The notes under the pieces are model-generated. The model worked only from the letters and a program-made list of their open reading frames with translations, was not told the DNA's origin and made no database searches. Shown here in pieces: positions 21,965 through 40,802 of a stretch of DNA of 44,293 bases. Numbering within the stretch: position 1 is the first letter of the stretch; the number at the start of each line of letters is the position of its first letter. The DNA lies in the sequence record MZ234049.1; one strand, 5' to 3'. This DNA is from Escherichia phage vB_EcoP-UTI89UKE2. The position numbers were made by a program, and so were the translations under genes.

Positions 21965-22702
21965 ATGCCTGTTATTAAACAACAAAGTTACACTGGCTAT
22001 ACTGTCTCAGATGTAGCCTTTCAAGTGATTGATAGTAAGCTGGAGGCTGTTAACCTTTGTATGCGAGCCATTGGTCGTGAGGGTGTGGATTCTCTCGACT
22101 CAGGCGACCTTGATGCTGAAGATGCTAGCAAAATGATTGATATCGTCTCCCAACGTTTCCAATACAACAAAGGAGGTGGTTGGTGGTTTAACCGTGAGCC
22201 TAACTGGCAGCTTGCACCAGATACTAATGGTGAGGTTAATCTACCTAATAACTGCCTAGCTGTATTGCAGTGCTACGCATTGGGTGAGAAGAAAGTTCCT
22301 ATGACTATGCGTGCAGGTAAGCTTTACTCCACATGGAGTCACACCTTTGATATGCGCAAGCATGTTAATGCTAATGGCATGATTCGTCTTACCTTACTTA
22401 CCTTACTACCCTACGAGCATCTACCTACAAGTGTAATGCAGGCTATTGCCTATCAAGCTGCTGTAGAGTTTATTGTGTCTAAGGATGCAGATCAGACTAA
22501 GCTAGCCACTGCGCAGCAGATAGCCACTCAGCTTCTTATGGATGTACAATCTGAGCAAATGTCACAGAAGCGATTAAACATGCTGGTACATAACCCCACT
22601 CAGCGACAGTTTGGCATCATGGCTGGTGGCTCTCAGAATGTACCTGCTTACTCTCATTCACCTTATGGTAGTTGGGCGCTCCGTCCGTGGGAGGATCGTT
22701 AA
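21965..22702 (+). CDS. tail tubular protein A (gp11-like)
   Basis: RBS AGGAGG at 21955-21960, ATG at 21965; position between capsid and gp12-like gene. Confidence 0.75.
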   Translation: MPVIKQQSYTGYTVSDVAFQVIDSKLEAVNLCMRAIGREGVDSLDSGDLDAEDASKMIDIVSQRFQYNKGGGWWFNREPNWQLAPDTNGEVNLPNNCLAVLQCYALGEKKVPMTMRAGKLYSTWSHTFDMRKHVNANGMIRLTLLTLLPYEHLPTSVMQAIAYQAAVEFIVSKDADQTKLATAQQIATQLLMDVQSEQMSQKRLNMLVHNPTQRQFGIMAGGSQNVPAYSHSPYGSWALRPWEDR

Positions 22703-25104
22703 TGGAAGTACAAGGTTCATTAGGTAGACAAATCCAAGGCATTAGCCAGCAGCCGCCAGCGGTACGCTTGGATGGTCAGTGCACAGCCATGATTAATATG
22801 ATACCTGATGTAGTGAATGGTACTCAATCACGCATGGGTACAACTCATATTGCAAAGATACTTGATGCGGGGACTGATGACATGGCTACTCATCATTATC
22901 GCAGAGGTGATGGTGATGAAGAGTATTTCTTCACGTTGAAGAAAGGACAAGTTCCTGAGATATTTGATAAGTATGGGCGCAAATGTAATGTGACTTCACA
23001 AGATGCACCTATGGCTTACTTGGCTGAGGTGATAAACCCAAGAGAAGATGTACAATTCATGACGATAGCTGATGTTACTTTCATGCTTAATCGTAGGAAA
23101 GTAGTTAAAGCTAGTAACAGGAAGTCACCTAAAGTTGGAAACAAAGCCATTGTGTTTTGTGCGTATGGTCAATATGGTACATCTTATTCCATTGTAATTA
23201 ATGGGACCAACGCTGCTAGTTTTAAAACACCGGATGGTGGAAGTGCAGACCATGTTGAACAAATTCGAACTGAACGTATCACTTCTGAATTATACTCTAA
23301 GTTGCAGCAATGGAGCGGTGTGAGTGACTATGAAATACAAAGAGACGGTACTAGTATATTTATCGAGAGACGGGATGGTGCTAGCTTTACAATAACAACC
23401 ACCGATGGTGCAAAAGGTAAGGACTTAGTGGCTATCAAGAATAAAGTTAGCTCTACTGACCTACTCCCGTCTCGTGCGCCTGCGGGTTATAAAGTGCAAG
23501 TGTGGCCTACTGGCAGCAAACCTGAGTCTCGTTACTGGCTGCAAGCTGAGCCTAAAGAGGGAAACCTTGTATCTTGGAAAGAAACAATAGCTGCCGATGT
23601 ATTACTTGGGTTTGATAAAGGCACAATGCCTTATATCATTGAACGTACAGGTATCGTAGACGGCATAGCTCAATTCAAGATAAGACAAGGCGATTGGGAA
23701 GATCGTAAAGTAGGGGATGACTTGACTAACCCTATGCCCTCTTTTATTGATGAGGAAGTACCCCAGACAATAGGTGGAATGTTCATGGTGCAGAACCGCC
23801 TATGCTTTACAGCAGGTGAAGCGGTTATTGCTTCTCGTACATCATACTTCTTCGATTTCTTTCGTTATACGGTTATCTCTGCATTGGCAACTGACCCATT
23901 TGATATTTTCTCAGATGCTAGTGAAGTCTACCAGCTAAAACATGCAGTGACCTTAGATGGCGCTACCGTGTTGTTCTCTGATAAGTCACAATTCATACTG
24001 CCAGGCGATAAGCCTTTAGAGAAGTCAAATGCATTGCTTAAGCCTGTTACAACATTTGAAGTGAACAATAAAGTGAAGCCAGTAGTAACTGGTGAATCGG
24101 TAATGTTTGCCACTAATGATGGTTCTTACTCTGGTGTACGAGAGTTCTATACAGACTCTTATAGTGACACTAAGAAGGCACAAGCAATCACAAGTCATGT
24201 GAATAAACTCATCGAAGGTAACATTACCAACATGGCAGCAAGCACCAATGTCAACAGGTTACTTGTCACTACCGATAAGTATCGTAACATAATCTACTGC
24301 TACGATTGGTTATGGCAAGGAACAGACCGTGTACAATCAGCATGGCATGTGTGGAAGTGGCCTATAGGTACAAAGGTGCGAGGTATGTTTTATTCTGGCG
24401 AATTACTTTACCTGCTCCTTGAGAGAGGCAATGGTGTCTATCTGGAGAAGACGGATATGGGTGATGCATTAACCTATGGTTTAAATGATCGCATCCGAAT
24501 GGATAGACAGGCAGAGTTAATCTTCCAGCATTTCGAAGCAGAAGATGAATGGGTATCTGAACCGCTACCTTGGGTTCCTACTAACCCAGAACTTTTAGAT
24601 TGCATCTTAATCGAGGGTTGGGATTCATATATTGGTGGTTCTTTCCTATTCAAATACAACCCCGGTGATAACACCTTGTCTACAACCTTTGATATGCATG
24701 ATGATAGCCACGTAAAAGCGAAGGTTATTGTTGGTCAGATTTACCCTCAAGAGTTTGAACCAACACCTGTAGTTATCAGAGATAGGCAAGACCGTGTATC
24801 CTATATTGATGTACCTGTTGTGGGATTAGTTCACCTTAATCTTGATATGTATCCTGATTTCTCCGTGGAGGTTAAGAATGTGAAGAGTGGTAAAGTACGC
24901 AGGGTGCTAGCGTCAAACCGTATAGGTGGTGCTCTCAACAATACAGTAGGTTATGTTGAACCAAGAGAAGGTGTCTTCAGATTCCCACTGAGAGCTAAGA
25001 GTACGGATGCTGTTTATCGTATTATTGTAGAATCACCTCACACATTCCAGCTTCGTGATATTGAGTGGGAAGGGAGCTACAATCCAACCAAAAGGAGGGT
25101 CTAA
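22702..25104 (+). CDS. tail tubular protein B (gp12-like)
   Basis: N-terminal IQGISQQPP matches the T7 gp12 GISQQPD motif; ATG overlaps the upstream stop (TAATG). Confidence 0.88.
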   Translation: MEVQGSLGRQIQGISQQPPAVRLDGQCTAMINMIPDVVNGTQSRMGTTHIAKILDAGTDDMATHHYRRGDGDEEYFFTLKKGQVPEIFDKYGRKCNVTSQDAPMAYLAEVINPREDVQFMTIADVTFMLNRRKVVKASNRKSPKVGNKAIVFCAYGQYGTSYSIVINGTNAASFKTPDGGSADHVEQIRTERITSELYSKLQQWSGVSDYEIQRDGTSIFIERRDGASFTITTTDGAKGKDLVAIKNKVSSTDLLPSRAPAGYKVQVWPTGSKPESRYWLQAEPKEGNLVSWKETIAADVLLGFDKGTMPYIIERTGIVDGIAQFKIRQGDWEDRKVGDDLTNPMPSFIDEEVPQTIGGMFMVQNRLCFTAGEAVIASRTSYFFDFFRYTVISALATDPFDIFSDASEVYQLKHAVTLDGATVLFSDKSQFILPGDKPLEKSNALLKPVTTFEVNNKVKPVVTGESVMFATNDGSYSGVREFYTDSYSDTKKAQAITSHVNKLIEGNITNMAASTNVNRLLVTTDKYRNIIYCYDWLWQGTDRVQSAWHVWKWPIGTKVRGMFYSGELLYLLLERGNGVYLEKTDMGDALTYGLNDRIRMDRQAELIFQHFEAEDEWVSEPLPWVPTNPELLDCILIEGWDSYIGGSFLFKYNPGDNTLSTTFDMHDDSHVKAKVIVGQIYPQEFEPTPVVIRDRQDRVSYIDVPVVGLVHLNLDMYPDFSVEVKNVKSGKVRRVLASNRIGGALNNTVGYVEPREGVFRFPLRAKSTDAVYRIIVESPHTFQLRDIEWEGSYNPTKRRV

Positions 25105-25850
25105 TGGCTATAGGTTCAGCCGTTATGGCTGGTATGTCTTCTATTGGTAGTATGTTTGCAGGTAGCGGTGCAGCGGCCGCTGCTGGGGGTACTGCCGCAG
25201 CAGCAGGAGGGACAGCCGCCGCAGGTGGCGGAGGTTTGCTTGGCTCCCTTGGTAGTTTCTTAGGAGGTTCTTCTGCTGGCTTCTCTAATGCAGGACTGCT
25301 TAGTGCAGGTATGCAAGGTCTTGGGCTTCTAGGCAATCTTTTTGGTGGAAGTGATGAAGCCAAAGCTATGAAGAAAGCTCAGGAGGAGCAATGGCGGCAG
25401 CAGTTAATTGCTACACAAGAAGCATATAAGACAGTAGCAGATGCAGAACGCTCTGCTGCTAAACAGTATCATGCGGATGCAATAAGCAATCAGGCTTCAC
25501 TGCTACAGCAAAGAGCGCAGGTTGCACTACTTGCAGGTGCAACTGGCACTGGTGGTAACTCTGTATCTTCTATGCTGAATGACTTAGCAGCAGAGGGCGG
25601 GAGGAACCAGAGTACAATTATTGATAACTATGAGAATCAGAAGATTAACTTCACCAATCAGCTTAAGTCTATCCAGCGAGGTGGACAGATGCAGATGCGT
25701 GAGTTTAAGAAGCCTTCTGCCGTGAGCACCTTGGTGCAAGGTATACCGAGTCTGGCATCTGCCTATGTAACAGGTAGTAAGTCCGGCATGGCTTTAGGTA
25801 AAGCTTTAACTGATTCTCGTACATATTCATCTGGAACAAGAGGTATTTAA
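25104..25850 (+). CDS. internal virion protein (Gly/Ala-rich N-terminus)
   Basis: ATG overlaps the gp12 stop; low-complexity GGTAAAAGG repeats. Confidence 0.65.
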   Translation: MAIGSAVMAGMSSIGSMFAGSGAAAAAGGTAAAAGGTAAAGGGGLLGSLGSFLGGSSAGFSNAGLLSAGMQGLGLLGNLFGGSDEAKAMKKAQEEQWRQQLIATQEAYKTVADAERSAAKQYHADAISNQASLLQQRAQVALLAGATGTGGNSVSSMLNDLAAEGGRNQSTIIDNYENQKINFTNQLKSIQRGGQMQMREFKKPSAVSTLVQGIPSLASAYVTGSKSGMALGKALTDSRTYSSGTRGI

Positions 25851-28798
25851 TGGCAATTGAGCGACAAGCAGTACAAGGTCTGCCACAAGTGCAGGCCACT
25901 TCTCCTAATGTCATGACCTTTGCACCTCAACAAGTGGGAGGTGTGGAGGCTGGCGTGGCTTCTACCTCCGGTAGTAGATTTATCGAAGACCTTATTCGTG
26001 CAGCAAGCAGCGTGGCTGATGTTACCACTGGTATCCTTAATCAGAAGATTGAGGAAGATAAGGTTATTCAAATGGAGCGGGCATATAATGGATTAATGCC
26101 TTCTGAGGATGCAACTCGTGGTGGCGCTCGTGCTAACATGCTTGTCAAAGCTCAACTGCTAGCTAATGATGAAGCAGCACGAATGAAAGACATGGCTACT
26201 CGTTTCCAAGGAACGGATGATGAGTGGACACAACTTATGGTTGACTCTCGTAATGAGATGCAGAATAAGCTGTTCCAGCAATACCCTGAGTTGCAAGGTG
26301 ACAAAGATACTATGCGTATGGTCACTAATGTCTTCCAAGAACAGCAGCCTCAGATTTGGGCTACACGAACCCAGCATAAACTTGACCGTGAACAAGCAGA
26401 CCGTGAGGATACCTTTGACGGGCGAGTGGCTTCTACTTGGGATTCTAATATTGACCCTGAAGCCTCTGGCTATGCTTTACAGGAACGAATCCGCGAAGGT
26501 CTTACTCAAGGATTACTACCGGAACAGATGCACAAGAAGTTAGTCCAGCGAGCAATTTCACTTGCACAAGGCGGTGATGTTAGCATGGCTGAAGCCCTGA
26601 AGTATGTGAAGGACGATAAGGGTGTTTCTGTTTATGCTAAGAATCCACAGCTTATCACAGCCATCACTAGTGGTAATGCAGTTTGGGCTAGGAATAATGT
26701 AGCTGATGTAACTCGTATGTCTTTCGAAGTTAAAGAATCCTACCTTGCAGGTGATTTAACTGATGAAGAACTGTTGGAACGAGCACAGCACATTAATAAT
26801 CTGACAGGTAACTCTGTCTTCTCTAATCCAGAGCTAGAGGCACTGATGCGCCAACGGGCTAAGCAGAATGCAGAGCTAGGTGCAATGCAGGATATGCGAC
26901 GTGAGCTTTACTCCGACCGCCTGACTGGCTTCCAAGGTAAGACTGATAAAGAGAAGAAGGCTTACATTGATGTTATCAAACAGGATAGCCAACTTTATGC
27001 AGACCAGCAAATCAAACAACGTGGCTTGGACCCTTACAGTCAAGAGGCTGAAGCTATTCGTGGTGCAGTGGAAGTGCAGCGCCTGCAATTCATGAACTCC
27101 AAAGGCTTAGTGGATGATACCTTTGAGTCTCGTATCAAAGCCATGGAATCTATGCTATCGCCTGAGCACTTTGCCAAGGGCGAACCACAGGAGTTGATGA
27201 CTATTCGCCAGTTGTGGGAACAGTTGCCAGAAGAGAGCCGAGGTGTCTTTGGTGACACGGTGAATGGCTACATGGATAACTACAACACTGCACTACAAAT
27301 GGGAGAGACACCTTTGCAGGCTGCAAGGTTTGCGCGTGAAGCACAGCAGAAATTCTCTCGTACTGAGAAGGAAACCAAGAAGTTCAACTCAGCTATTGGA
27401 GATGCACTGGATGAGGTATCTGGTGCTGGCTGGTTTGATGGTAAAACCGAAGTGTCAGACTTAGGTAAAGCTATTGCGGAAGAAGAGTTACGAGCTAAGG
27501 CCAATATGTTGTGGTCTAGTGGTATGCGTAACATGGATTCTATCAAGAAGGCTTTAATTACTTGGGGCAATAAACGCTACACTCAAACAGAGGATGCAAA
27601 GACTTCCGGTGGCTATTTCATTAAAGGTGATTACACTTCTGCATCTGATATGCTTATGTCAGTTGGGAAAGGCGTAAACCCTACCGATGTACCTCTGGCG
27701 CTTGGTAGGTATGTAGAAACACAGATGCCAGAATTGAAGAAGGAGCTTCAAGAGTGGGAAACTAAAGATGATATATACATTGATTACAATGAACAGAAAG
27801 GAACTTTTGTGATTCGTGCTGGTGCAGCAGGTCGACCTCTTTCTGGAGTAATCCCTGTAACCTCTTTAGATACCACTTCACTACTAGATTCTGCCTATCA
27901 GAAGAAAGTAGAGGAACGAGATAAAGGCGAGTATGTTCACCCGTATCGTACAGATATTGGTGCACAAGAGCCTATGCCAGCTAAACCAACTGCCAAAGAT
28001 ATTGGTAAATTTGGACTAGCTAACTTCCTCATGTCTTCTGCTTTTGCTTCTGGTGAGAATCTGCCTTCTAACTTCGAGATTAACTATCGAGGTAATATGC
28101 AACAATTCTATGACAAGCTAGCTATGGATGAGAATAAAGATAAAGTTGGCTTTAATAAGGCAACTGGAACCTTTACTCCATATAAAGACGCTCGCGGTGA
28201 GTCTATCGGTTACGGTCATTTCTTAACGGAAGAAGAGAAGCGAAACGGGTATATTAAGATTGGTGATGAACTAGTTCCCTATCGAGGGTCTATGTCTCAG
28301 CTTACAGAGAGCAAGGCTCGCGCTCTTATGGAGCAAGATGCTAAGAAGCATGTGCCTCCTACTCGTGACTGGAAGATTCCGTTTGACCAGATGCATCCTG
28401 CACAGCAACGTGGCTTGATGGATTTAACCTACAATTTAGGTAAAGGTGGAATCCAGAACTCACCGCGTGCTCTTGCTGCATTCAAAGCTGGTAAGCTTAC
28501 GGAAGGCTTTATCGAAATGCTGGGCACTGCATCAAGTGAAGGTAAGCGTATTCCTGGCCTACTGAAGCGACGCGCTGAGGCATACAATATGGCATCTGCT
28601 GGTGGTGTGCCTAAGATTACCGAAGTGGAGACTCGTGAAGATGGCTCCATGTGGGTTAGGTTTGGTGGACCTATGCCAGCAGGTTCTGTCTCGGCATGGA
28701 CTCATAAACGTATTGGCGCGGATGGTTGGTATCAGGTTTATGAGGCTGCACCTACCAAGTTAGCTAAAGGTTCTAAGGTAGGTAAAGTTAAGTTGTAG
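25850..28798 (+). CDS. internal virion (ejection) protein with C-terminal T4-lysozyme-like muramidase domain
   Basis: 982 aa; residues encoded around 28150-28600 carry MDENKDK ... YKDARGESIGYGHFLTE ... MDLTYNLG ... LLKRRAEAYNM, resembling the T4 lysozyme fold with Glu/Asp catalytic positions retained. Confidence 0.8.
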   Translation: MAIERQAVQGLPQVQATSPNVMTFAPQQVGGVEAGVASTSGSRFIEDLIRAASSVADVTTGILNQKIEEDKVIQMERAYNGLMPSEDATRGGARANMLVKAQLLANDEAARMKDMATRFQGTDDEWTQLMVDSRNEMQNKLFQQYPELQGDKDTMRMVTNVFQEQQPQIWATRTQHKLDREQADREDTFDGRVASTWDSNIDPEASGYALQERIREGLTQGLLPEQMHKKLVQRAISLAQGGDVSMAEALKYVKDDKGVSVYAKNPQLITAITSGNAVWARNNVADVTRMSFEVKESYLAGDLTDEELLERAQHINNLTGNSVFSNPELEALMRQRAKQNAELGAMQDMRRELYSDRLTGFQGKTDKEKKAYIDVIKQDSQLYADQQIKQRGLDPYSQEAEAIRGAVEVQRLQFMNSKGLVDDTFESRIKAMESMLSPEHFAKGEPQELMTIRQLWEQLPEESRGVFGDTVNGYMDNYNTALQMGETPLQAARFAREAQQKFSRTEKETKKFNSAIGDALDEVSGAGWFDGKTEVSDLGKAIAEEELRAKANMLWSSGMRNMDSIKKALITWGNKRYTQTEDAKTSGGYFIKGDYTSASDMLMSVGKGVNPTDVPLALGRYVETQMPELKKELQEWETKDDIYIDYNEQKGTFVIRAGAAGRPLSGVIPVTSLDTTSLLDSAYQKKVEERDKGEYVHPYRTDIGAQEPMPAKPTAKDIGKFGLANFLMSSAFASGENLPSNFEINYRGNMQQFYDKLAMDENKDKVGFNKATGTFTPYKDARGESIGYGHFLTEEEKRNGYIKIGDELVPYRGSMSQLTESKARALMEQDAKKHVPPTRDWKIPFDQMHPAQQRGLMDLTYNLGKGGIQNSPRALAAFKAGKLTEGFIEMLGTASSEGKRIPGLLKRRAEAYNMASAGGVPKITEVETREDGSMWVRFGGPMPAGSVSAWTHKRIGADGWYQVYEAAPTKLAKGSKVGKVKL

Positions 28799-28862: not shown

Positions 28863-31800
28863 ATGGAACAAGACATTAAGACTAATTGGGCTGGATATGT
28901 CCAGTCTACTCCTGAGCCGTTTTCTATTGAGGCGGCTCCGGTATCGGCTCCTACGATACGCCAGCGTAATGAGTTACAAGAGCAAGTTCTTGAAGCTAAA
29001 GCTGACGCTGATATTTTAGGTGCTGTAGGTGCTGCCTTCCAGAATGAGTGGTTGGCATTCGGAGGCAAGCGGTGGTATGACCGTGCCACTGCTGATTTCA
29101 CACCTCAACCAGACTTTGAGATACAACCTGAGCAACGTGAAGCACTACGTTTCAAATATGGTACGGATATGATGCAGACAATCACTGAGGGTGTTCGTTC
29201 TGAGGATGAATTGAACTTCCGTATTCAGAATGCTGATGAAGACCTTGAGCGCAATAAGCGCATTGCTCAGGCTGGCTGGGTTGGCTCTGTGGCGACGATT
29301 GGCGCTGCTGTGCTTGACCCTGTGGGATGGGTTGCCTCTATTCCAACCGGTGGTGCCGCTAAAGTTGGACTCGTAGGACGTGCTGTGCGTGGCGCTATCG
29401 CCGCTGGCGTGAGTAATGCCGCTATTGAATCCGTATTGGTCCAAGGTGACATGACTCGTGATTTAGATGACATTATGGTAGCACTAGGTTCCGGTATGGC
29501 GATGGGTGGCGTTATTGGCGCTGTAGCGCGTGGTAGGGCCACTAAGCTCAGTGAGCAAGGGGATGACAGGGCTGCGAGCATTGTGCGCAGTGCAGACGCA
29601 GGGGACCGCTATGTGCGTGCTGTTGCTGATGATAGTATCGGTGCGATGCGTGTTAAGGGTGAAGAGGTACTCACGGAGGGTGCATTTGATGTCTCTAGCA
29701 AAGGTGAAGATTTGCTGAAAACCCTACAGCGGGAAGGTAATGCAATTGATATGACCCCTCGCCGCTGGGCCGGAACTCTGTCTGCCCTTGGTACTGTCGT
29801 ACATTCCTCTCAGGATGCAAGTGTACGCGGCCTTGGTGCTCGCCTGTTTGAGTCCCCCCAAGGCTTAGGTATGCAGAAGGCATCTGCTAGTCTCATGCAG
29901 AATACTAACTTGAACCGTCTGAAATCTGCTGATATGAATCGTTTCAACGATGGGTTCGATTTATGGCTCAAAGAGAATAATATCAACCCGGTTGCAGGTC
30001 ATACTAACTCTCACTATGTGCAGCAATATAATGAGAAGGTATGGGAAGCTGTACGCATCGGTATGGACGAGTCTACGCCTAAGTCTATCCGTATGGCAGC
30101 AGAGGGGCAGCAAGCTATGTATCGTGAAGCATTAGCATTACGTCAACGCTCTGGTGAAGCTGGGTTTGAAAAGGTTAAAGCAGATGATAAGTACATGCCT
30201 GATATTTTTGACAGTATGAAGGCTCGTCGTCAATTCAGTATGCACGATAAAGAGGACATCATTGAGTTATTCTCTCGTGCATACCAGAATGGTTCTCGTA
30301 AGGTTCCAAAGGAAGTGGCTGATGATATTGCACGAGCACAAGTAAACCGCGTTGCTGATGCCACCTTGACCGGACAGCTTAGCTTTGAAAAGGCTATGTC
30401 TGGTCAAACCAAAGCAGAATATGAAGCACTCATGCGCAAAGCAGGCTTTAGTGATGAAGAGATTGAAAAGATGGTAGAAGCTCTGGATAATAAAGAAACC
30501 AGAGATAATATCTCTAACCGAGCTAAGATGAGTTTAGGCTTAGATGTTACTCAAGAGTACAATGGTATTCGTATGCGTGACTTTATGAACACTAACGTGG
30601 AAGAGTTAACAGATAACTACATGAAGGAAGCGGCAGGTGGTGCTGCCTTGGCTCGTCAAGGTTTCTCTACCTATCAGGCTGCACTTAATGCAATTGATCT
30701 TGTAGAGCGAAATGCACGAAATGCAGCTAAAGATACAAAAGCACACGCACAATTTGAAGCGGAGTCGGCTAAGATCCGTCAATCAGAGCCTGATTACAAG
30801 AAGGCACAAGAGAAGATTGAAGAGTTAAAGAAGCGACTTAAATTGAAAGAGAAAGATGAAGCAGCAGGTCTGGCTATTGATGAAGAAATCCGTCAGATGC
30901 GAGAGGGGCTTCGCTTGATTATGGGTAAATCTATCGATTCAAACCCACAAGATTTGTCTACTAAAATGCTGCGTCGTGGGCGTGACATTACAGGCGTACT
31001 TCGCTTAGGTCAGATGGGCTTCGCACAGCTAGGTGAACTTGCTAACTTCATGGGTGAGTTTGGTATTGCTGCCACCACTATGGCTTTAGGTAAGCAATTC
31101 CGCTTCACCTCTAAGGCGTTGCGTAATGGCGATGGCTTCTTTCGAGATAAGAATTTAGCTGAGGTTGAGCGAATGGTAGGTTACATTGGTGAAGACAACT
31201 GGCTAACAACTAAGGGTGCGCGTCCAGATGAGTTTGGTGATGTAACCACAGTGCGAGGTATGATGGCCCATTTTGACCAGTCCATGAACTCTATACGACG
31301 TGCTCAGACAAACCTATCCCTCTTCCGCATGGCACAGGGTTCTCTGGAGCGAATGACCAATAGGCAAATAGCTTTGTCTTTCATTGACCACCTTGAAGGC
31401 AAGAAGATTATCCCTCAGAAGAAACTGGAGGAACTTGGTCTTACTCAGGGGTTCATGACTAACCTACAGAAGCACTATGATGCTAACTCTAAAGGTTCTG
31501 GCTTGCTTGGCTTTGATACAATGCCTTATGCCATGGGTGAAACTTTAGCTAATGCTATTCGTCGTAAGTCAGGTCTAATTATCCAACGTAACTTCATTGG
31601 TGATGAAGGTATCTGGATGAACAAAGCACTAGGTAAGACATTTGCACAGCTTAAGTCATTCTCTCTTGTATCTGGTGAGAAGCAATTTGGTCGAGGGATT
31701 CGACACGATAAAATTGGTCTTGCTAAGAAGACAGCTTACGGGTTTGCTTTGGGTTCAATAGTGTATGCGGCAAAAGCCTATGTGAACTCTATTGGGCGAG

Positions 31801-32171
31801 AAGACCAAGATGAATATTTGGAAGAGAAGTTATCGCCTAAAGGGTTGGCCTTTGGTGCAATGGGTATGATGAGTACAACTGCTGTATTTAGTCTAGGTGG
31901 AGATTTCTTAGGTGGCCTAGGTGTTCTACCTTCTGAGTTAGTACAATCCCGTTATGAGGCTGGCTTTCAGACTAAGGGTTTGATAGACCAAATACCACTA
32001 GTAGGTGTTGGTCAAGATGCATATCGTTTAGCAGATTCTATAACTAAATATGCAGAGGGTGATACAGAAGGTGTAGATGTGGCACGTAGGGCTTTACGCT
32101 TAGTGCCTCTAACTAATGTAATAGGAATCCAGAACGCATTGCGTTATGGCTTAGATGAACTGGAGGATTGA
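28863..32171 (+). CDS. large internal virion protein (1102 aa; gp16-like core/ejection protein)
   Basis: RBS GGAGG; size and position. Confidence 0.8.
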   Translation: MEQDIKTNWAGYVQSTPEPFSIEAAPVSAPTIRQRNELQEQVLEAKADADILGAVGAAFQNEWLAFGGKRWYDRATADFTPQPDFEIQPEQREALRFKYGTDMMQTITEGVRSEDELNFRIQNADEDLERNKRIAQAGWVGSVATIGAAVLDPVGWVASIPTGGAAKVGLVGRAVRGAIAAGVSNAAIESVLVQGDMTRDLDDIMVALGSGMAMGGVIGAVARGRATKLSEQGDDRAASIVRSADAGDRYVRAVADDSIGAMRVKGEEVLTEGAFDVSSKGEDLLKTLQREGNAIDMTPRRWAGTLSALGTVVHSSQDASVRGLGARLFESPQGLGMQKASASLMQNTNLNRLKSADMNRFNDGFDLWLKENNINPVAGHTNSHYVQQYNEKVWEAVRIGMDESTPKSIRMAAEGQQAMYREALALRQRSGEAGFEKVKADDKYMPDIFDSMKARRQFSMHDKEDIIELFSRAYQNGSRKVPKEVADDIARAQVNRVADATLTGQLSFEKAMSGQTKAEYEALMRKAGFSDEEIEKMVEALDNKETRDNISNRAKMSLGLDVTQEYNGIRMRDFMNTNVEELTDNYMKEAAGGAALARQGFSTYQAALNAIDLVERNARNAAKDTKAHAQFEAESAKIRQSEPDYKKAQEKIEELKKRLKLKEKDEAAGLAIDEEIRQMREGLRLIMGKSIDSNPQDLSTKMLRRGRDITGVLRLGQMGFAQLGELANFMGEFGIAATTMALGKQFRFTSKALRNGDGFFRDKNLAEVERMVGYIGEDNWLTTKGARPDEFGDVTTVRGMMAHFDQSMNSIRRAQTNLSLFRMAQGSLERMTNRQIALSFIDHLEGKKIIPQKKLEELGLTQGFMTNLQKHYDANSKGSGLLGFDTMPYAMGETLANAIRRKSGLIIQRNFIGDEGIWMNKALGKTFAQLKSFSLVSGEKQFGRGIRHDKIGLAKKTAYGFALGSIVYAAKAYVNSIGREDQDEYLEEKLSPKGLAFGAMGMMSTTAVFSLGGDFLGGLGVLPSELVQSRYEAGFQTKGLIDQIPLVGVGQDAYRLADSITKYAEGDTEGVDVARRALRLVPLTNVIGIQNALRYGLDELED

Positions 32172-36266: not shown

Positions 36267-36944
36267 GTGTTAGGTATTACAGGACAACGAAGTGTAAGTC
36301 ATCAAGCTAAGGTTGCCACGGAAGTGGCTCCTATCGTTGATATCTCAGATGTGTCTGACGTTAACTCTTATCTAAACCAAAAGTACCTATCAGGTAAACA
36401 GGAAGGATATACTGTTCTGACTAAGAAAGGTTCACGTTATTCATTGTATGCTGCAACAGGTTCTAAGCCAGAAGATAAGTGGTTGCCTTTAGAGCAAGCA
36501 ACCCTACCTGATTCGAGTGCATTAGAGCTAATTGACACCATCGATGTTGAAGTTGCAAGTGCAAGCGACACAGTAGAGGTTAATGTAACCAAAGAGAGGA
36601 CTGTGTGCATCCAGACGCCTATGAAGGACTTAGCAGGTGATACAGTTTACCGGCAAGAATTGACTGCCAACATTAACCTTACCATTAATGAAAACGGAAG
36701 CCCAAGCGATACGGTTAAATTAAACATATCAATTCCTAATTTGCCAGGAACATCTAGTGGGTCTTACTATACAGTTGACAATGTGCTGTGTACTTCTTTT
36801 GGAGACGACAGTCCTGTTATTGCCAATATAGATGTCGATAAGGCTACCACTAACTTGATTGCTGTTACACTTCGTAAAGAGACGGCAACAGATATTAGGC
36901 TGTCTCTTGTAATTAGGTGGTCAATGCCAGTGGAGATTGTATAA
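36267..36944 (+). CDS. hypothetical protein (about 225 aa), paralog 3 with C-terminal extension; GTG start inferred
   Basis: Motif KYLSGKQEGYTVL ... YAATGSKPEDKWLPL; start codon uncertain (TTG 36237 or GTG 36267). Confidence 0.55.
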   Translation: MLGITGQRSVSHQAKVATEVAPIVDISDVSDVNSYLNQKYLSGKQEGYTVLTKKGSRYSLYAATGSKPEDKWLPLEQATLPDSSALELIDTIDVEVASASDTVEVNVTKERTVCIQTPMKDLAGDTVYRQELTANINLTINENGSPSDTVKLNISIPNLPGTSSGSYYTVDNVLCTSFGDDSPVIANIDVDKATTNLIAVTLRKETATDIRLSLVIRWSMPVEIV

Positions 36945-37288
36945 TGCTTAACAAATACTTCAAGCGTAAAGAGTTCGCTTGCCGTTGTGGGTGCGGTACA
37001 TCCACTGTTGATGCTGAATTACTGCAGGTAGTCACAGATGTGCGTGAGCACTTTGGTACTCCTGTTGTTATCACTTCTGGTCATCGCTGTGCTAAGCACA
37101 ATGCTAATGTAGGTGGAGCTAAGAACTCTATGCATCTTACTGGTAAGGCTGCTGACATTAAGGTACGAGGCATCTTACCTTCTGATGTACATAAGTACCT
37201 TACTGATAAGTACCAAGGCAAGTATGGTATTGGTAAATATACCTCCTTTACTCATATTGATGTACGTGACGGGTGTGCACGATGGTAG
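36944..37288 (+). CDS. endolysin, peptidase M15 family (zinc peptidase)
   Basis: FACRCGCG ... SGHRCAKHNANVGGAKNSMHLTGKAADI ... HIDVRDG; ATG overlaps the upstream stop. Confidence 0.8.
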   Translation: MLNKYFKRKEFACRCGCGTSTVDAELLQVVTDVREHFGTPVVITSGHRCAKHNANVGGAKNSMHLTGKAADIKVRGILPSDVHKYLTDKYQGKYGIGKYTSFTHIDVRDGCARW

Positions 37289-37885: not shown

Positions 37886-37964
37886 ATGAGATAGTGCCGT
37901 TCTTTTGAGCGGCCTATTACTAGCCAATCTTCATAGGGAGGATTGGGAAGTAATAGGAGAGTAT

Positions 37965-38300
37965 ATGGCTAAGTTAACTAAACCCAAGACAACGGGCTTA
38001 CTACATAGAGATACTGTACTAGCTAACTTATTAGATAATTTACTATCTAAAAGGCGTGTTACATTTGAAGGTGTAGCTCCAAGTGAAGATACTAAAATTG
38101 AGATAGAAGTACCTGTGACAGGAGACTTAGATTCTTCGTGGGCATCAATTGTATCATTAAGTACACCTGCACTTTGTACAGCTTGGATCACTAAACTGTC
38201 AGATACTACTTTAGAGATTCATGTATTTCATACAGCACAAGTAGAAATAGACATAGAGGTAGATGTTTACGTTCTAGGTAAGCACACTGTCAGTGCGTAA
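37965..38300 (+). CDS. hypothetical protein (111 aa) preceding the tailspike gene
   Basis: RBS GGAG then ATG at 37965. A 111-aa ORF at this position is recalled for K1E-type phages, where K1-5 carries a second tailspike instead. Confidence 0.6.
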   Translation: MAKLTKPKTTGLLHRDTVLANLLDNLLSKRRVTFEGVAPSEDTKIEIEVPVTGDLDSSWASIVSLSTPALCTAWITKLSDTTLEIHVFHTAQVEIDIEVDVYVLGKHTVSA

Positions 38301-38366
38301 GCACTGCTTTTCGCGCAACTTTTCTTAAAGGTTATCATGATGGTAGCCTTTCAGAAAGGAGGTTAC

Positions 38367-40802
38367 ATGATTCAAAGACTAGGTTCTTCATTAGTTAAAT
38401 TCAAGAGTAAAATAGCAGGTGCAATCTGGCGTAACTTGGATGACAAGCTCACCGAGGTTGTATCGCTTAAAGATTTTGGAGCCAAAGGTGATGGTAAGAC
38501 AAACGACCAAGATGCAGTAAATGCAGCGATGGCTTCAGGTAAGAGAATTGACGGTGCTGGTGCTACTTACAAAGTATCATCTTTACCTGATATGGAGCGA
38601 TTCTATAACACCCGCTTCGTATGGGAACGTTTAGCAGGTCAACCTCTTTACTATGTGAGTAAAGGTTTTATCAATGGTGAACTCTATAAAATCACGGACA
38701 ACCCTTATTACAATGCTTGGCCTCAAGACAAGGCGTTTGTATATGAGAATGTGATATATGCACCCTACATGGGTAGCGACCGTCATGGTGTTAGTCGTCT
38801 GCATGTATCATGGGTTAAGTCTGGTGACGATGGTCAAACATGGTCTACTCCAGAGTGGCTAACTGATCTGCATCCAGATTACCCTACAGTGAACTATCAT
38901 TGTATGAGTATGGGTGTATGTCGCAACCGTCTGTTTGCCATGATTGAAACACGTACTTTAGCCAAGAACGCACTAACCAATTGTGCATTGTGGGATCGCC
39001 CTATGTCTCGTAGTCTGCATCTTACTGGTGGTATCACTAAGGCTGCAAATCAGCGTTATGCAACAATCCATGTACCTGATCACGGATTATTCGTGGGCGA
39101 TTTTGTTAGCTTCTCTAATTCTGCGGTAACAGGTGTAACTGGTGATATGAAAGTTGCAACAGTTATAGATAAGGACAACTTCACGGTTCTTACAGCCAAT
39201 CAGCAGACCTCTGATTTGAACAATGCTGGAAAGAATTGGCACATGGGTACTTCCTTCCATAAGTCTCCATGGCGTAAGACAGATCTTGGCCTGATACCTC
39301 GTGTTACTGAAGTTCATAGCTTTGCTACTATTGATAACAATGGCTTTGTTATGGGTTATCACCAAGGCGACGTAGCTCCACGCGAAGTTGGTCTTTTCTA
39401 CTTCCCTGATGCTTTTAACAATCCATCTAATTATGTTCGTCGTCAGATACCATCTGAGTACGAACCGGGTGCTGCAGAGCCATGCATCAAGTACTATGAC
39501 GGTGTATTATACCTTATCACTCGTGGTACTCGTGGCGACCGACTAGGAAGCTCTTTGCATCGTAGTAGAGATATAGGTCAGACTTGGGAGTCACTGAGAT
39601 TTCCACATAATGTTCATCATACTACCTTACCTTTTGCTAAAGTAGGAGATGACCTTATTATGTTTGGTTCAGAACGTGCAGAAAATGAATGGGAAGCAGG
39701 TGCACCAGATGATCGTTACAAGGCATCTTATCCTCGTACCTTCTATGCACGATTGAATGTAAACAATTGGAATGCAGATGATATTGAATGGGTTAACATC
39801 ACAGACCAAATCTATCAAGGTGACATTGTGAACTCTAGTGTAGGTGTAGGTTCTGTTGTAGTTAAAGACAGCTACATTTACTATATCTTTGGTGGTGAAA
39901 ACCATTTCAACCCAATGACTTATGGTGACAACAAAGATAAAGACCCATTTAAAGGTAATGGACACCCTACTGATATATACTGCTATAAGATGCAGATTGC
40001 AAATGACAGTCGTGTATCTCGTAAGTTTACATATGGTGCAACTCCTGGTCAGGCTATACCTACTTTCATGGGTACTGATGGTATTCGCACTATTCCTGCT
40101 CCACTTCACTTATCAGGAGAGGTAGTTGCCGCAGATATGACTGTCGAACACCTTACCTTGAAGGCAAGTACAAGTGCTAATATTCGCTCAGAGATGCTGA
40201 TGGAGGGTGAATATGGGTTCATTGGTAAGACTATACCAACGGATAACCCAACCGCCCAACGTGTTATCATCTCTGGTGGAGAGGGTACAGCAGCAGATAC
40301 CGGTGCGCAAATTACCTTACACGGAGCAGGTTCTAGCACTTCTAGACGCGCAGTATATAATGCCAATGAGCACTTGTTCCAAAGTGGAGCTATCATGCCA
40401 TACAATGATAACGTGTATCCTGCTGGTGGCCCTCGTAATAGATTCACTACTATCCATCTTACAAGTGACCCTATTATTACGTCGGATGCCACTCATAAGT
40501 ATGGATCACAAGGTATTGATGAGAGTGTACTAAAGGCATGGGGTAAGGTTAGCTTCAAGCAGTACAAGTTGATTGGTGAGATGTCTCGTGGTGTGCACCA
40601 CACTCACTTTGGTGTATTGGCACAAGACATTGTAGCTGCTTTTGCATCCGAAGGGTTAGATGCAATCGACTTCGGCATTGTCTCCTTCGAAGAAGGTCAG
40701 TTTGGTGTTAGATATAGTGAAATCTTAATCTTGGAGGCTGCTTATACTCGCTATCGTTTAGACAAGTTAGAGGAGATGTATGCCACTAATAAAATCAGTT
40801 AA
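38367..40802 (+). CDS. tailspike endo-N-acetylneuraminidase (endosialidase) with C-terminal intramolecular chaperone domain
   Basis: 811 aa from ATG 38367 (RBS AAGGAGG). Sequence recognised from memory as K1-phage endosialidase, including the C-terminal block ending YATNKIS. Confidence 0.88.
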   Translation: MIQRLGSSLVKFKSKIAGAIWRNLDDKLTEVVSLKDFGAKGDGKTNDQDAVNAAMASGKRIDGAGATYKVSSLPDMERFYNTRFVWERLAGQPLYYVSKGFINGELYKITDNPYYNAWPQDKAFVYENVIYAPYMGSDRHGVSRLHVSWVKSGDDGQTWSTPEWLTDLHPDYPTVNYHCMSMGVCRNRLFAMIETRTLAKNALTNCALWDRPMSRSLHLTGGITKAANQRYATIHVPDHGLFVGDFVSFSNSAVTGVTGDMKVATVIDKDNFTVLTANQQTSDLNNAGKNWHMGTSFHKSPWRKTDLGLIPRVTEVHSFATIDNNGFVMGYHQGDVAPREVGLFYFPDAFNNPSNYVRRQIPSEYEPGAAEPCIKYYDGVLYLITRGTRGDRLGSSLHRSRDIGQTWESLRFPHNVHHTTLPFAKVGDDLIMFGSERAENEWEAGAPDDRYKASYPRTFYARLNVNNWNADDIEWVNITDQIYQGDIVNSSVGVGSVVVKDSYIYYIFGGENHFNPMTYGDNKDKDPFKGNGHPTDIYCYKMQIANDSRVSRKFTYGATPGQAIPTFMGTDGIRTIPAPLHLSGEVVAADMTVEHLTLKASTSANIRSEMLMEGEYGFIGKTIPTDNPTAQRVIISGGEGTAADTGAQITLHGAGSSTSRRAVYNANEHLFQSGAIMPYNDNVYPAGGPRNRFTTIHLTSDPIITSDATHKYGSQGIDESVLKAWGKVSFKQYKLIGEMSRGVHHTHFGVLAQDIVAAFASEGLDAIDFGIVSFEEGQFGVRYSEILILEAAYTRYRLDKLEEMYATNKIS

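Follow-up and report, generated by a model that had tools for sequence, protein, structure and literature searches.

Evidence for a T4-lysozyme-like (GH24) muramidase domain at the C-terminus of the internal virion protein in the gp15 position of Escherichia phage vB_EcoP-UTI89UKE2

Here, we describe a cell-wall-cutting domain carried by an internal virion protein of Escherichia phage vB_EcoP-UTI89UKE2 (MZ234049.1), analyzed within a window that comprises the whole 44,293-nucleotide (nt) stretch of DNA, read 5' to 3' on one strand. The gene lies at 25850..28798 on the plus strand, an ATG-start open reading frame (ORF) of 982 amino acids (aa) that is the same coding sequence as annotated in GenBank MZ234050. 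Its product is very likely the large internal virion (ejection) protein of an SP6/K1E-type podophage, in the position of gp15 (the periplasmic-tunnel protein) and bearing a GH24 muramidase at its C-terminus. The GH24, or T4-lysozyme-like, domain covers aa ~746-915 (28085..28594, plus strand). For SP6-like and phiKMV-like phages, a C-terminal lysozyme domain is already known and annotated and has experimental support, and the present gene is a member of the SP6-like group.

The gene is the orthologue of K1-5/K1E gp35 and SP6 gp36, located in the T7 gene-15 position. Its 2949-nt region shares 100% nucleotide identity with Escherichia phage vB_EcoP-UTI89UKE3 (MZ234050) and 99.2% with phage K1-5, and is matched by 65 phage records, nearly all of them Vectrevirus or Escherichia phages; the relatives belong to the Autographiviridae, Molineuxvirinae, Vectrevirus, in which K1E and K1-5 are relatives of SP6. 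At the protein level, 974 of 982 residues (~99%) are identical to K1-5 gp35 (RefSeq YP_654136.1), and K1E gp35 has the same length (PMC8954989). PHROG 4290, 'lysozyme domain-containing protein', is matched end to end (E = 0, 1513.8 bits, aa 1-982 to profile positions 1-969 of 969). Homologues were gathered by a full-length search, which yielded 29 full-length homologues at 38-98% identity, and by exhaustive phmmer (a word-indexed search with the C-terminal 282 aa gave only 3 matches); conservation counts given below for the family refer to 31 full-length members, likewise at 38-98% identity. MZ234050 labels this gene 'hypothetical protein', and the RefSeq name for the K1-5 orthologue is 'lysozyme domain-containing protein'.

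The only Pfam domain in the 982-aa protein is PF00959 (Phage_lysozyme), found at aa 776-910 with E 1.9e-10 and 41.6 bits against a gathering cut-off of 22.3, and spanning profile positions 9-124 of 125; precomputed PF00959 matches are present in 23 of the 29 homologues. In a phmmer search against all PDB sequences, the only matches were to T4 lysozyme (T4L) and variants of it (best E 5.5e-4, aa 777-890 to T4L 17-133), and when 182 homologous domain segments were combined into a profile, T4L scored 68.8 bits. Taken together, the Pfam, phmmer and homologue-profile scores establish that the lysozyme similarity is real and far beyond chance.

The structure of the C-terminal 282 residues was predicted using AlphaFold2 (AF2) with an alignment of 18 family members as input, generating a model with a mean predicted local distance difference test score (pLDDT) of 86.6 and a predicted template modelling score (pTM) of 0.80. 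The model has a helix at 746-762, a beta lobe at 768-810 and a helical lobe extending to 915, and thus the two-lobed T4L fold with its N-terminal helix, small beta lobe and helical C-lobe. Searched against the PDB using Foldseek, it matched only T4L, T4L fusion constructs and GH24 endolysins (phage 21 R21, PHAb11, EC340), all with probability 1.0 and a template modelling (TM) score of ~0.6 normalized to the target. In a second fold search the best matches were again all GH24 muramidases, with lytic transglycosylases scoring lower (MltC 6.5, MltE 6.1, Slt 5.6, phiKZ gp144 4.7). The original prediction, made from the sequence alone, had placed a T4-lysozyme-like muramidase at the C-terminus and named structure prediction as a check, with absence of the fold as the outcome that would count against it; that outcome did not occur, and the placement is borne out by Pfam, the PDB sequence search, the predicted structure and both fold searches. 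Its extent requires correction: the prediction had aligned the last ~250 residues with T4L, and the fold takes up about 170 of these (aa ~746-915), the final 67 residues standing apart from it.

Three residues are candidates for the catalytic set. D780 (codon 28187..28189, plus strand) is equivalent to T4L Asp20 in both the phmmer and homologue-profile alignments, and S785 (codon 28202..28204, plus strand) is equivalent to T4L Thr26 in HMMER alignments ('ykdarge.sigygh' vs 'ykdtegyytigigh'). The putative general acid, corresponding to T4L Glu11, is E761 (codon 28130..28132, plus strand), which belongs to the 'EN' motif with which the first helix ends. Two strings quoted in the original prediction as marking the catalytic positions are present in the protein: 'MDE' ends at E761, and 'YKDARGESIGYGH' corresponds to aa 778-790. 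Across the family, E761 is invariant (31/31), as are G787, G789 and H790, and the D780 column is Asp in 29 of 31 members, the remaining two having an insertion that carries alternative Asp residues. The S785 column holds Ser in 25, Thr in 3 and Asn in 3 members, and in a wider, distant set Thr (70) and Ser (60). Among distant representatives covering the position, the E761 column is Glu in 86 of 97, in every case as part of an 'EN' motif, and the N762 column Asn in 88 of 99.

Residue 782 (28193..28195), in the hairpin between D780 and S785, is Arg in this protein and His in K1-5 and most homologues ('KDAHG'); it is one of only eight substitutions that separate the protein from K1-5 gp35.

Several results weigh against the reading of this protein as a gp15-position ejection protein with a working GH24 site, and they concern either the first catalytic residue or the remainder of the protein. 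No local alignment with T4L or Pfam reaches E761; those made by phmmer and local hhalign start at aa 763-777, and local hhalign sets T4L E11 opposite V766. The spacing of the putative residues, E-18-D-4-S, departs from the canonical GH24 spacing of E-8-D-5-T. For the N-terminal part, aligning the 31-sequence profile to T7 gp15 with hhalign resulted in a probability of 0.1% and E 0.45, and a homologue-profile search of the PDB recovered only T4L, with no match for aa 1-700.

The position of E761 outside every local alignment is explained by a 10-residue insertion that follows it, which lies between the putative Glu and the YKD strand and forms an extra hairpin (aa 768-775) in the model. Forced global hhalign, at the cost of this insertion, pairs E761 with T4L Glu11. 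In the AF2 model E761 sits in the last turn of helix 746-762, and in T4L Glu11 is at the end of the N-terminal helix. Stand-alone relatives of 167-196 aa begin just before the 'EN' Glu, the 167-aa P0060 starting 5 residues before it. Based on the alignment, the conservation and the helix position, E761 is very probably the general acid. The claim that both catalytic positions align with those of T4L holds directly for the Asp, through HMMER alignment; the Glu is paired only in the forced global alignment, and its assignment is putative. E743, which is also invariant, was considered as the catalytic Glu and rejected: it precedes the 17-residue helix, and no equivalent exists in stand-alone relatives such as P0060, whose start just before the 'EN' Glu excludes it.

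With respect to gp15, the family has been described as too divergent for detection by sequence (PMC4819975). As no gp15 similarity is detectable here, a gp15-like tunnel role rests on synteny and the literature, in which K1E and K1-5 gp35 are treated as gp15-like ejection proteins (PMC8954989). The protein occupies the gp15 position; homology to gp15 is not claimed as demonstrated.

The gene lies between homologues of gp14 and gp16, the gene position of T7 gp15. Upstream, at 25065..25850 (plus strand), is a T7 gp14-like internal virion protein gene (Pfam T7_gp14, E 1.1e-32; PHROG 805 'internal virion protein'). Downstream, at 28863..32171 (plus strand), is a 1102-aa homologue of T7 gp16 (PHROG 342, E 1.2e-244). 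The placement of the domain on an internal virion or ejection protein, as originally proposed, agrees with these flanking genes and with the literature (PMC8954989). The gp16 homologue aligns through aa 8-1101 to PHROG 342 profile positions 162-1227 of 1235, its BLASTP alignment with T7 gp16 begins only at T7 residue 275, and no Pfam match to an SLT-type domain was found in either the gp16 homologue or the 982-aa protein. Because the matches to PHROG 342 and T7 gp16 start late and no SLT match is present, the gp16 homologue is judged to lack the ~160-residue lytic transglycosylase domain. The further proposal, that the muramidase is distinct from the lytic transglycosylase of T7 gp16, is thus sustained. 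A separate endolysin gene for lysis, encoding a Peptidase_M15_3 protein (Pfam PF08291, E 1.4e-32), is found at 36917..37288 (plus strand), and the K1-5 RefSeq record has an 'endolysin' at the corresponding place with holin and spanin nearby.

For the gp16 homologue (28863..32171), MZ234050 gives the name 'peptidoglycan lytic exotransglycosylase'. This looks like a name transferred from T7 gp16, with the real lytic gene adjoining it labelled 'hypothetical'.

We propose that the protein would be packaged in the capsid core and, at infection, ejected through the tail after the gp14-like protein; core presence and ejection are taken from the literature (PMC5380687, PMC8954989). In the periplasm, the lysozyme domain would then locally hydrolyze the beta-1,4 bond between N-acetylmuramic acid (MurNAc) and N-acetylglucosamine (GlcNAc) of peptidoglycan (MurNAc-beta-1,4-GlcNAc), using E761 as putative general acid together with D780 and S785, in the roles of T4L Glu11, Asp20 and Thr26. 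The resulting hole would let a channel of the gp15-like and gp16-like proteins reach the inner membrane, and the lysozyme domain would in this way replace the lytic transglycosylase that T7 carries at the gp16 N-terminus. To this scheme the present analysis contributes the fold, the family, the Asp/Ser alignment, the conservation, the gene context, the transglycosylase-less gp16 homologue and the separate endolysin. Where the protein resides in the virion, its ejection, its enzymatic activity, the part played by E761 and a hydrolase rather than transglycosylase chemistry are drawn from inference or from the literature.

Three other accounts of the domain were weighed, and each is unlikely. Were the lysozyme fold to work as a lytic transglycosylase, releasing a 1,6-anhydro-MurNAc product, as has a precedent in lambda R, the functional contrast with T7 gp16 would lie solely in the fold and not in the chemistry. 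The non-canonical spacing of the putative catalytic residues would be compatible with this, and so would the column equivalent to Asp20, which is Ser in 50 of 148 distant relatives; with about a third of relatives having Ser there, a second acid is not universally required in the subfamily. However, D780 and S785, which the SP6-like family conserves, align with the residues that hold the attacking water in place in T4L, the best fold matches are all GH24 muramidases, and the K1-5 and SP6 proteins appear in reviews as 'lysozyme' (PMC5380687), leaving transglycosylase chemistry improbable, if the least so of the three.

Still less probable is that the lysozyme fold has lost catalysis and persists in the ejectosome to bind peptidoglycan or in a purely structural role. 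E761, N762, D780, G787, G789 and H790 are invariant or nearly so in homologues down to 38% identity, passages in two sources report that SP6 gp36 and the K1-5 protein, which is 99% identical, have muralytic activity (PMC5380687, PMC8954989), and phiKMV gp36C, of the same architecture, is an active enzyme (PMC5380687); a dead domain would nonetheless fit with a catalytic Glu that is not locally alignable. Also on the side of a dead domain, the T7 transglycosylase is dispensable under most laboratory conditions (Moak & Molineux, 2000, as summarized in PMC8954989). That the domain serves late host lysis as an endolysin, and not entry, scarcely merits credence, although the PHROG category for the family is 'lysis' and a GH24 enzyme is typically an endolysin. 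The domain is joined to a 700-residue protein within an internal-virion-protein operon, an M15 endolysin is encoded separately by the phage (K1-5 is annotated with holin and spanin genes as well), and the literature puts the protein in the virion (PMC5380687). A muramidase acting on entry from an ejected internal virion protein is the account we retain.

Much of this has been described for relatives. K1-5 gp35, K1E gp35 and SP6 gp36 share the same gene order (gp14-like gene, this gene, gp16-like gene) and are listed as virion-associated lysozymes (PMC5380687); a table of virion-associated lysins in that review enters K1-5 YP_654136.1 (109 kDa) and SP6 gp36 (107 kDa) as lysozymes, citing Moak & Molineux 2004. 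That gp35 of SP6-like viruses has a lysozyme domain at its C-terminus, as phiKMV gp36 does, is credited to Lavigne et al. 2006 in the paper on KP34 (PMC3082699), and for SP6 gp36 a passage of PMC4837284 cites Dobbins 2004 and Scholl 2004. Across Autographivirales, a lysozyme domain is located at the C-terminus of the tunnel protein in 31 of 127 cases (bioRxiv 10.64898/2026.05.18.726046).

The closest parallel beyond the SP6-like phages is with phiKMV gp36 (gp36C) and Ar-KM gp42, which are alike in being gp15-position proteins of ~900 aa with a C-terminal T4-lysozyme-like domain; proteins of ~900 aa with such a domain were also among the representative matches found here. For the phiKMV-like proteins the enzyme has been shown to be active and has been seen by cryo-electron microscopy in the core stack of the virion (PMC5380687; bioRxiv 10.64898/2026.05.18.726046). 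These phages belong to the Krylovirinae, whereas the present phage belongs to the Molineuxvirinae, and the sequences are distant. The domain in Ar-KM gp42 is reported to comprise residues 740-881 (bioRxiv 10.64898/2026.05.18.726046), and phiKMV gp36 has 898 aa (PMC8954989), which puts the end of the domain near the C-terminus, whereas here a 67-residue module follows.

The N-terminal domain of T7 gp16 has the same presumed job, that of an ejected protein opening peptidoglycan for the DNA channel (PMC8954989), but differs in fold family (SLT-type rather than GH24), in its carrier (gp16 rather than the gp15-position protein), in its location (N- rather than C-terminal) and in its presumed chemistry (transglycosylase rather than hydrolase). 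T4 lysozyme (gp e), the lysozyme domain of T4 gp5 and GH24 endolysins (P22 gp19, DLP12 RrrD, phage 21 R21) share about 19-24% identity with the domain. Compared with T4 lysozyme and the GH24 endolysins, the domain has the 10-residue insertion, 'EN' in place of 'EG' and one residue fewer between the Asp and the Ser/Thr, and is joined within one polypeptide to an N-terminal region of 745 residues and a C-terminal module of 67. Overall, the analysis adds little: it re-derives the textbook picture in which domains that cut the cell wall are placed in mosaic fashion on the ejection proteins of podophages, at the gp16 N-terminus in T7 and, in SP6-like and phiKMV-like phages, at the C-terminal end of the protein in the gp15 position. 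Worth recording are the mislabelled MZ234050 annotations, the non-canonical 'EN' GH24 catalytic spacing and the uncharacterized 67-residue module.

This module, a conserved, beta-rich segment of aa 916-982 (28595..28795, plus strand), lies outside the T4L fold and is confidently folded in the model; no solved structure is related to it, and Pfam has no model for it. Of 150 distant representatives, 24 have the module after the 'EN-motif' GH24 domain, including ~900-aa virion proteins and proteins of 330-440 aa. We tentatively suggest that it may be an undescribed accessory domain, possibly a unit for peptidoglycan binding or substrate positioning, or else a dock that might hold the lysozyme to the core stack or to the gp16 homologue until ejection. 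On the other side of the lysozyme domain is a conserved segment of aa 714-745 (27989..28084, plus strand; TAK..G..F..S..G..LP.NFE), which in the model forms short helices leading into the domain (aa 715-721, 723-727 and 730-733, pLDDT about 80). Its invariant columns are T714, A715, G722, F726, S729, G735, L738, P739, N741 and E743.

The gp14-like gene has several possible starts, including a GTG at 25065 (261 aa) and the GenBank start at 25104 (248 aa). The nozzle gene (22672..25104) ends inside this ORF, and the N-terminal part of its product is Gly/Ala-rich and of low complexity.

Further downstream, an endosialidase tailspike is encoded at 38337..40802 (Pfam E 1.5e-221). It is preceded by a 131-aa ORF (37905..38300) in which all that is left of the K5-lyase tailspike of K1-5 is its N-terminal peptide (MAKLTKP...), fitting the truncated second tailspike described for K1E (PMC5380687). 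With only this remnant of the second K1-5 tailspike, the phage is therefore of the K1E type. GC skew is positive in every 2-kb bin of the window, and the cumulative skew rises monotonically.

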